DNA from: Escherichia coli
Lineage (GTDB): Bacteria > Pseudomonadota > Gammaproteobacteria > Enterobacterales > Enterobacteriaceae
Strand: one strand, 5' to 3'
NCBI RefSeq assembly: GCF_013122565.1
Contig: NZ_CP053258.1
DNA length: 64,000 nt
Part shown: piece after piece, positions 63,538-64,000 of the stretch
Position numbering within the stretch: the stretch's first letter is position 1
How the letters are laid out: every line of letters begins with the position of its first letter
Made by a program: the position numbers and the translations under genes
The notes under the pieces: generated by a model
The model's input: only the letters and a program-made list of their open reading frames with translations
Databases searched by the model: none
What the model was told of the DNA's origin: nothing

Positions 63538-64000
63538 ATGAGTAAAGTTGGTATTAACGGTTTTGGTCGTATCGGTCGACTGGTGTTGCGTCGATTACTT
63601 GAAGTCAAAAGCAACATAGACGTTGTCGCTATTAATGATCTTACTTCCCCAAAAATTCTCGCCTATCTGCTGAAACATGATTCAAACTATGGTCCGTTCC
63701 CCTGGAGCGTTGATTTTACGGAAGATTCACTTATCGTTGATGGGAAAAGTATCGCGGTTTACGCCGAAAAAGAGGCTAAAAATATTCCGTGGAAAGCGAA
63801 AGGTGCAGAAATCATTGTCGAATGTACTGGCTTTTATACCTCCGCCGATAAATCGCAGGCGCATCTTGATGCTGGTGCGAAGAAGGTGTTGATTTCCGCT
63901 CCTGCCGGTGAAATGAAAACCATCGTTTATAACGTTAATGACGACACTCTGGATGGCAACGATACCATTGTTTCCGTGGCGTCATGCACCACTAACTGCC
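63538..64000 (+). CDS. gapC: Glyceraldehyde-3-phosphate dehydrogenase C, 5' partial; continues beyond window
   Basis: ATG at 63538 with GGAGAAAACC SD; [23 protein letters not shown] (NAD-binding GxGxxG) ... catalytic SCTTNC at the window edge; no stop in 154 codons. Absent from the ORF track because no stop lies inside the window. Confidence 0.75.

Follow-up and report, generated by a model that had tools for sequence, protein, structure and literature searches.

The stretch of DNA analyzed here (the window, 64,000 nucleotides of Escherichia coli contig NZ_CP053258.1) ends inside an open reading frame of the glyceraldehyde-3-phosphate dehydrogenase (GAPDH) family, in the place where K-12 has the gapC pseudogene. 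The question raised by this locus is whether the source strain codes for a complete second GAPDH or whether its frame is broken somewhere past the edge. Our results indicate that the window very probably ends inside an intact gapC, encoding a 333-residue NAD-dependent phosphorylating type I GAPDH that would be a second isozyme beside GapA. The finding is real but already known, as this is an ordinary and characterized state of the gene, with a slight residual doubt over the 539 bases past the window edge.

The gapC frame at the edge of the window

The gapC frame opens with an ATG at 63538-63540 on the plus strand, and translation of 63538-63999 gives 154 codons with no stops, base 64000 being the first of codon 155. 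The Shine-Dalgarno sequence AGGAG can be read directly at 63527..63531 (+), with a 6-nt spacer to the ATG. According to translation, Pfam and TIGR01534, the 5' part of gapC contained in the window (63538..64000, +) covers the NAD-binding domain and the beginning of the catalytic domain. The translation carries the dinucleotide-binding motif GxGxxG as G8-F-G-R-I-G13 (residues 8-13; 63559..63576, +) and, where the second strand (beta-2) ends, Asp34 (codon at 63637..63639, +); an acidic residue in this place marks the GAPDHs that prefer NAD, a role that Asp34 would share. The active-site motif SCTTNC corresponds to residues 149-154 (63982..63999, +) with the catalytic Cys150 at 63985-63987, and the window edge lies four residues past this cysteine, the fragment ending in ...SVASCTTNC. 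The start at 63538, the good Shine-Dalgarno sequence, the 154 open codons, the NAD motif and SCTTNC had all been pointed out in a first-pass annotation of the window, and our reading and translation bear out each of them.

The 154-residue fragment matched Pfam Gp_dh_N (PF00044) with E=1.6e-36 and the NCBIfam model for type I GAPDH, TIGR01534, with E=4.8e-56 over profile positions 1-159; its score against the latter, 190.3 bits, stays below the cutoff of 367.2 only through truncation at the window edge. With these domain matches, the gapC frame is not a chance ORF. Besides gapC itself, just one ORF of 50 aa or more overlaps the stretch, an out-of-frame one of 71 aa at 63677-63892, and the minus strand opposite it has none.

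The locus has the order cybB-gapC-aldA, with cybB divergent and aldA convergent, which is the place of K-12 b4493. When the final 1001 nt of the window were compared with the 5,426 complete E. coli genomes, 5,417 gave a match, and two of these are 100% identical over this length; in both, the gene between cybB and aldA is 1002 nt long and its product, WP_000048653.1, is annotated as 'type I glyceraldehyde-3-phosphate dehydrogenase'. K-12 MG1655 has at the same position the gapC pseudogene b4493, of 1001 nt (formerly gapC_1 / gapC_2), and this agrees with what the first-pass annotation had stated about gapC in K-12.

Alignment of the K-12 pseudogene with intact gapC (1002 nt) showed 98.4% nucleotide identity, with 16 substitutions and a 1-nt deletion. 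Two of the K-12 changes are disabling: A115T, which converts Lys39 from AAA to TAA, and the reduction of an A7 run at gene nt 744-750 to A6, which causes a frameshift after Lys250. R18G and D104E are missense, and the remaining non-disabling substitutions are synonymous. The nonsense mutation is absent from the window, where codon 39 (63652..63654, +), the site of the K-12 TAA, is an intact AAA coding for lysine. The A7 run, which encodes Gly-Lys-Lys (in an uninterrupted gene, nt 742-753 would read GGAAAAAAAGTG), falls at window-equivalent positions 64281-64287, 281-287 nt past the edge. Since this site is outside the window, the window alone is silent on the second K-12 lesion. Homopolymer runs are classic slippage hot spots, and the loss of one base from A7 could therefore be recurrent or reversible.

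Downstream extension and identity of the protein

No complete E. coli genome matched the window exactly, the best being 99.0% identical over 24 kb, and the frame was followed past the edge in close relatives found with exact protein look-ups. The Trg protein led to eight contigs that are 99.2-99.6% identical to the window over ~13.9 kb, all of them with a 333-codon gapC. A 51-mer containing a SNP at 61825 that these eight lack had no match among the GTDB species representatives, and the source strain is therefore not one of them. The YdcK protein, present in exact form in none of these eight, returned seven places, one of which, L015 (Logan assembly SRR11451224, contig 21, SRR11451224_21, 62,009 nt), has 100.000% identity with window positions 43811-64000 over 20,190 nt, with 0 mismatches and 0 gaps. 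The other six differ from the window at 57-165 positions. Judged by this identity, L015 is the same clone as the window strain or a practically identical one.

L015 runs 791 nt beyond the window end, so that codons 1-154 of gapC were read in the window and codons 155-333 (539 nt past the edge) in L015. The gene occupies 19728-20729 of L015, with 1002 nt and 333 codons, and ends at window-equivalent 64539; the A7 tract is kept (L015 20471-20477) and there is a single, terminal stop after ...LEKFAKL. It differs from gapC of strain PapM-32-1 by one synonymous change, and directly 3' of its stop, ahead of the convergent aldA, there is a hairpin rich in G+C and, after it, T residues. A 333-codon gapC was also found in 16/16 other fetched relatives of the same allele class. 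The first-pass annotation had proposed downstream extension and alignment to K-12 gapC as ways to see whether the frame stays open for ~333 codons, and had named a stop or frameshift soon past the window as the result that would speak against it. What we found in L015 is a frame of 333 codons with neither a stop nor a frameshift and with A7 intact, and the alignment to K-12 showed TAA39 to be absent from the window and the A6 slip absent from L015.

The full-length GapC of L015 is identical to WP_000048653.1, a protein found on at least 1000 contigs, O157:H7 among them. It scored 446.4 bits against TIGR01534 (cutoff 367.2), which places it within the type I GAPDH equivalog, and it has two domains, PF00044 (Gp_dh_N) at residues 3-102 and PF02800 (Gp_dh_C) at residues 155-313, only the first of which is in the window. 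The catalytic C150 is likewise in the window, and the essential H177 (in TTIHAYTG) is present in the L015 extension.

These full-length comparisons also bear on whether the ORF could be gapA or epd (gapB) and not gapC. The N-terminal NAD domain and SCTTNC are common to the three genes, and with a fragment of 154 residues the epd models score near the GAPDH models. GapC shares fold, chemistry, SCTTNC and GxGxxG with GapA (b1779), the principal GAPDH of glycolysis, but its identity to K-12 GapA is only 46%. In addition, the full-length protein fell below the cutoff of the GapA-type model NF011954 (PRK15425; 298.7 bits, cutoff 662) and of both Epd/GapB models, NF010058 (279.4, cutoff 539) and TIGR01532 (275.6, cutoff 530.55). 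We rejected gapA and epd on these scores, on the identity with GapA and on the synteny with cybB and aldA, and consider the chance of either to be negligible.

A search of PDB pointed to an enzyme that has been crystallized and assayed. The chains of EcGAPDH1 (PDB 7C5F, 7C5G, 7C5I and related) scored 729 bits, and outside E. coli the chain scores did not exceed 482 bits. EcGAPDH1 is 332/333 identical to the GapC of the window strain and shares with it C150, H177 and both domains; the one difference is a conservative substitution, E104 in EcGAPDH1 and D104 in the window strain. By sequence, the protein crystallized under the name 'E. coli type 1 GAPDH (EcGAPDH1)' comes from gapC and is not GapA. 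The name gapC has 0 occurrences in the structural paper (PMC8615399), and this cross-reference, on which the paper is silent, is mildly new.

EcGAPDH1 has a KM of 0.73 mM for G3P, its activity is abolished by C150A and drops 10^3 to 10^4-fold with C150S and H177A (Zhang et al. 2021, PMC8615399). Given its 99.7% identity to an assayed enzyme, the D104 allele of GapC would be expected to have the chemistry of an NAD-dependent phosphorylating GAPDH. Following the mechanism of the near-identical crystallized enzyme, Cys150 would attack glyceraldehyde-3-phosphate, hydride would then be transferred to NAD+ and phosphate would cleave the thioacyl intermediate to yield 1,3-bisphosphoglycerate, with His177 likewise predicted to be essential for activity.

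Intact and broken gapC alleles across E. coli

The distribution of both K-12 lesions was followed with allele-specific short queries against the 5,426 complete E. coli genomes, the A-run 34-mer in its A7 version being searched by blastn with word 11. In this collection, which is enriched in K-12 laboratory derivatives, the 30-mer with the K-12 TAA39 was found in 1,153/5,426 genomes (~21%). The K-12 haplotype around codon 39 with AAA in place of TAA was found in 3,231 genomes and the window's own AAA haplotype in 650, O157:H7 and O55:H7 included, while ~390 genomes are outside all three haplotypes. Lys39 is thus kept in at least 72% of complete genomes, although this and the other counts are bounds, since short queries are blind to lesions elsewhere in gapC. 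The A-run 34-mer was found in some version in 5,263 genomes; 1,565 have the exact A7 version of the window and 1,049 of the 5,426 (~19%) the A6 version of K-12, and the rows inspected outside the A6 class spanned the 34 nt without an indel. Most E. coli carry an intact gapC. The first-pass annotation had suggested that this strain may encode a functional second GAPDH; the gene is indeed intact and the enzyme that is identical to its product at all but one residue is active, but there is nothing in this that is peculiar to the strain.

The same counts help to weigh whether gapC might be open only within the window, with the source strain carrying the A6 slip or some other lesion downstream and therefore a pseudogene. 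The second K-12 lesion does lie beyond the window, in a slippery A7 run, the slip occurs in close to a fifth of complete genomes, and IS insertions in gapC also occur, strain EC05 being an example. However, L015, with no difference from the window over the whole of their shared sequence, has A7 and the 333-codon frame, and all the close relatives that were fetched are intact. Moreover, the A6 in the alleles of K-12 and of the marine sediment isolate DLI.6n sits together with TAA39, which the window does not have, and the stop and the frameshift occur in similar numbers of genomes (the 1,153 and 1,049 given above, which are totals and not paired per genome). We therefore regard a lesion downstream as very improbable and keep the intact gene as our reading of the locus.

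The lesions of K-12 are also found beyond laboratory strains, for instance in isolates of human origin, in others from pigs, chickens and dogs, and in those from flies, vegetables and marine sediment. The pseudogene of DLI.6n (L024 1396-2396) is 1001/1001 identical to that of K-12 (L003 4714-5714), including TAA39 and A6. This identity, together with the presence of TAA39 in more than a thousand genomes from many hosts, argues that the K-12 lesions are natural and not a laboratory artefact, and their spread in the wild qualifies the published idea of their accumulation in laboratory strains, which is mildly new. The K-12 pseudogene probably belongs, as one of its alleles, to a natural polymorphism of presence and loss, of which the window strain very probably carries the common functional allele. 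A broader proposal, in which the K-12 pseudogene is a naturally circulating loss allele unrelated to laboratory domestication and gapC is a stable presence/loss polymorphism that marks ecological specialization (for example, for survival outside the host), is tentative, and as a whole we lean somewhat against it. If it is true, the window strain stands on the gapC+ side.

Divergent alleles provide a longer view of the gene. CFT073 and strain 3347558 have gapC alleles that have diverged yet remain intact; comparison with them gave pN/pS of 0.06 and 0.04 (pS 0.09 and 0.17), and the comparison with a frame-repaired K-12 gapC gave 0.05. Values of 0.04-0.06 point to strong purifying selection on gapC and to a recent break of the K-12 allele.

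The gapC region also attracts mobile elements. In EC05 (L023 1396-3030), the IS5-like ISKpn26 is inserted inside a gapC already broken by TAA39, and two relatives of the window (L008 and L009, 8265-9634) have an IS3-family element between hokB and trg; both insertions are absent from the window.

Upstream region, expression and other features

The divergent intergenic region between cybB and gapC (63350..63537) is 188 nt long and collinear with that of K-12, with 5 differing positions. From its position, this region presumably contains the gapC promoter and 5' UTR. A sigma-70 consensus scan returned sites no more frequently than in shuffled sequence, and none of those upstream of gapC was convincing.

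GapC protein has proved difficult to detect when pathogenic strains are cultured in the laboratory. This, the lack of a gapC promoter in the sigma-70 scan and the loss of the gene in about one fifth of complete genomes, wild isolates included, without obvious cost, would all suit a gapC that is intact but effectively silent or redundant, a cryptic leftover heading for loss and adding nothing to GapA. The low pN/pS, in comparisons with alleles whose pS reaches 0.17, indicates instead a long-term purifying selection, and there is also a record of transcription. In K-12, ChIP-seq places a sigma-S peak in the interval that separates gapC from cybB (PMC4447067), and gapC transcripts increase under carbon limitation and decrease on rpoS inactivation, even in K-12 (PMC2759082). 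Transcripts exist as well in EPEC, where they respond to CsrA, being reduced in the csrA mutant (PMC6333774). Furthermore, intact gapC has already been described in environmental isolates, with preferential expression in fresh water (PMC2949598), and a passage of another paper refers to an adaptive role of gapC in aquatic survival by citing that same work (PMC1796617). A silent gapC is an unlikely description of this strain. Read together, the published observations suggest that the intact gapC may be expressed conditionally, backing up or supplementing GapA outside the gut.

For the window strain, the consequence is that it should be annotated with a functional second GAPDH, GapC, and not with a pseudogene as in K-12, which is of little importance beyond annotation. 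Metabolic models based on K-12 or designs for gapA knockouts would, however, mislead if they were transferred to this strain.

Other features were observed along the window. Just downstream of cybB, Rfam models identified two RNAs on the plus strand in the same arrangement as in K-12: the sok antitoxin RNA of the hokB/sokB type I toxin-antitoxin system (62034-62185, 109.7 bits) and the sRNA RydC (62745-62808, 92.5 bits). The genome of PapM-32-1, although collinear elsewhere, has nothing that corresponds to a window segment of ~3.6 kb at 25297-28898; in its place there are remnants of ISEc1 and VgrG together with an M35 peptidase and a PAAR-like gene. The six minus-strand ORFs of the window segment had no match in Pfam other than one weak GNAT, and the segment resembles a variable island that carries orphan cassettes. 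Finally, a bacterial selenocysteine insertion element, SECIS_3, was detected at 8301-8359 (-) with 84.3 bits, presumably within fdnG, the gene for the alpha subunit of formate dehydrogenase-N, according to the annotation of a neighboring genome.
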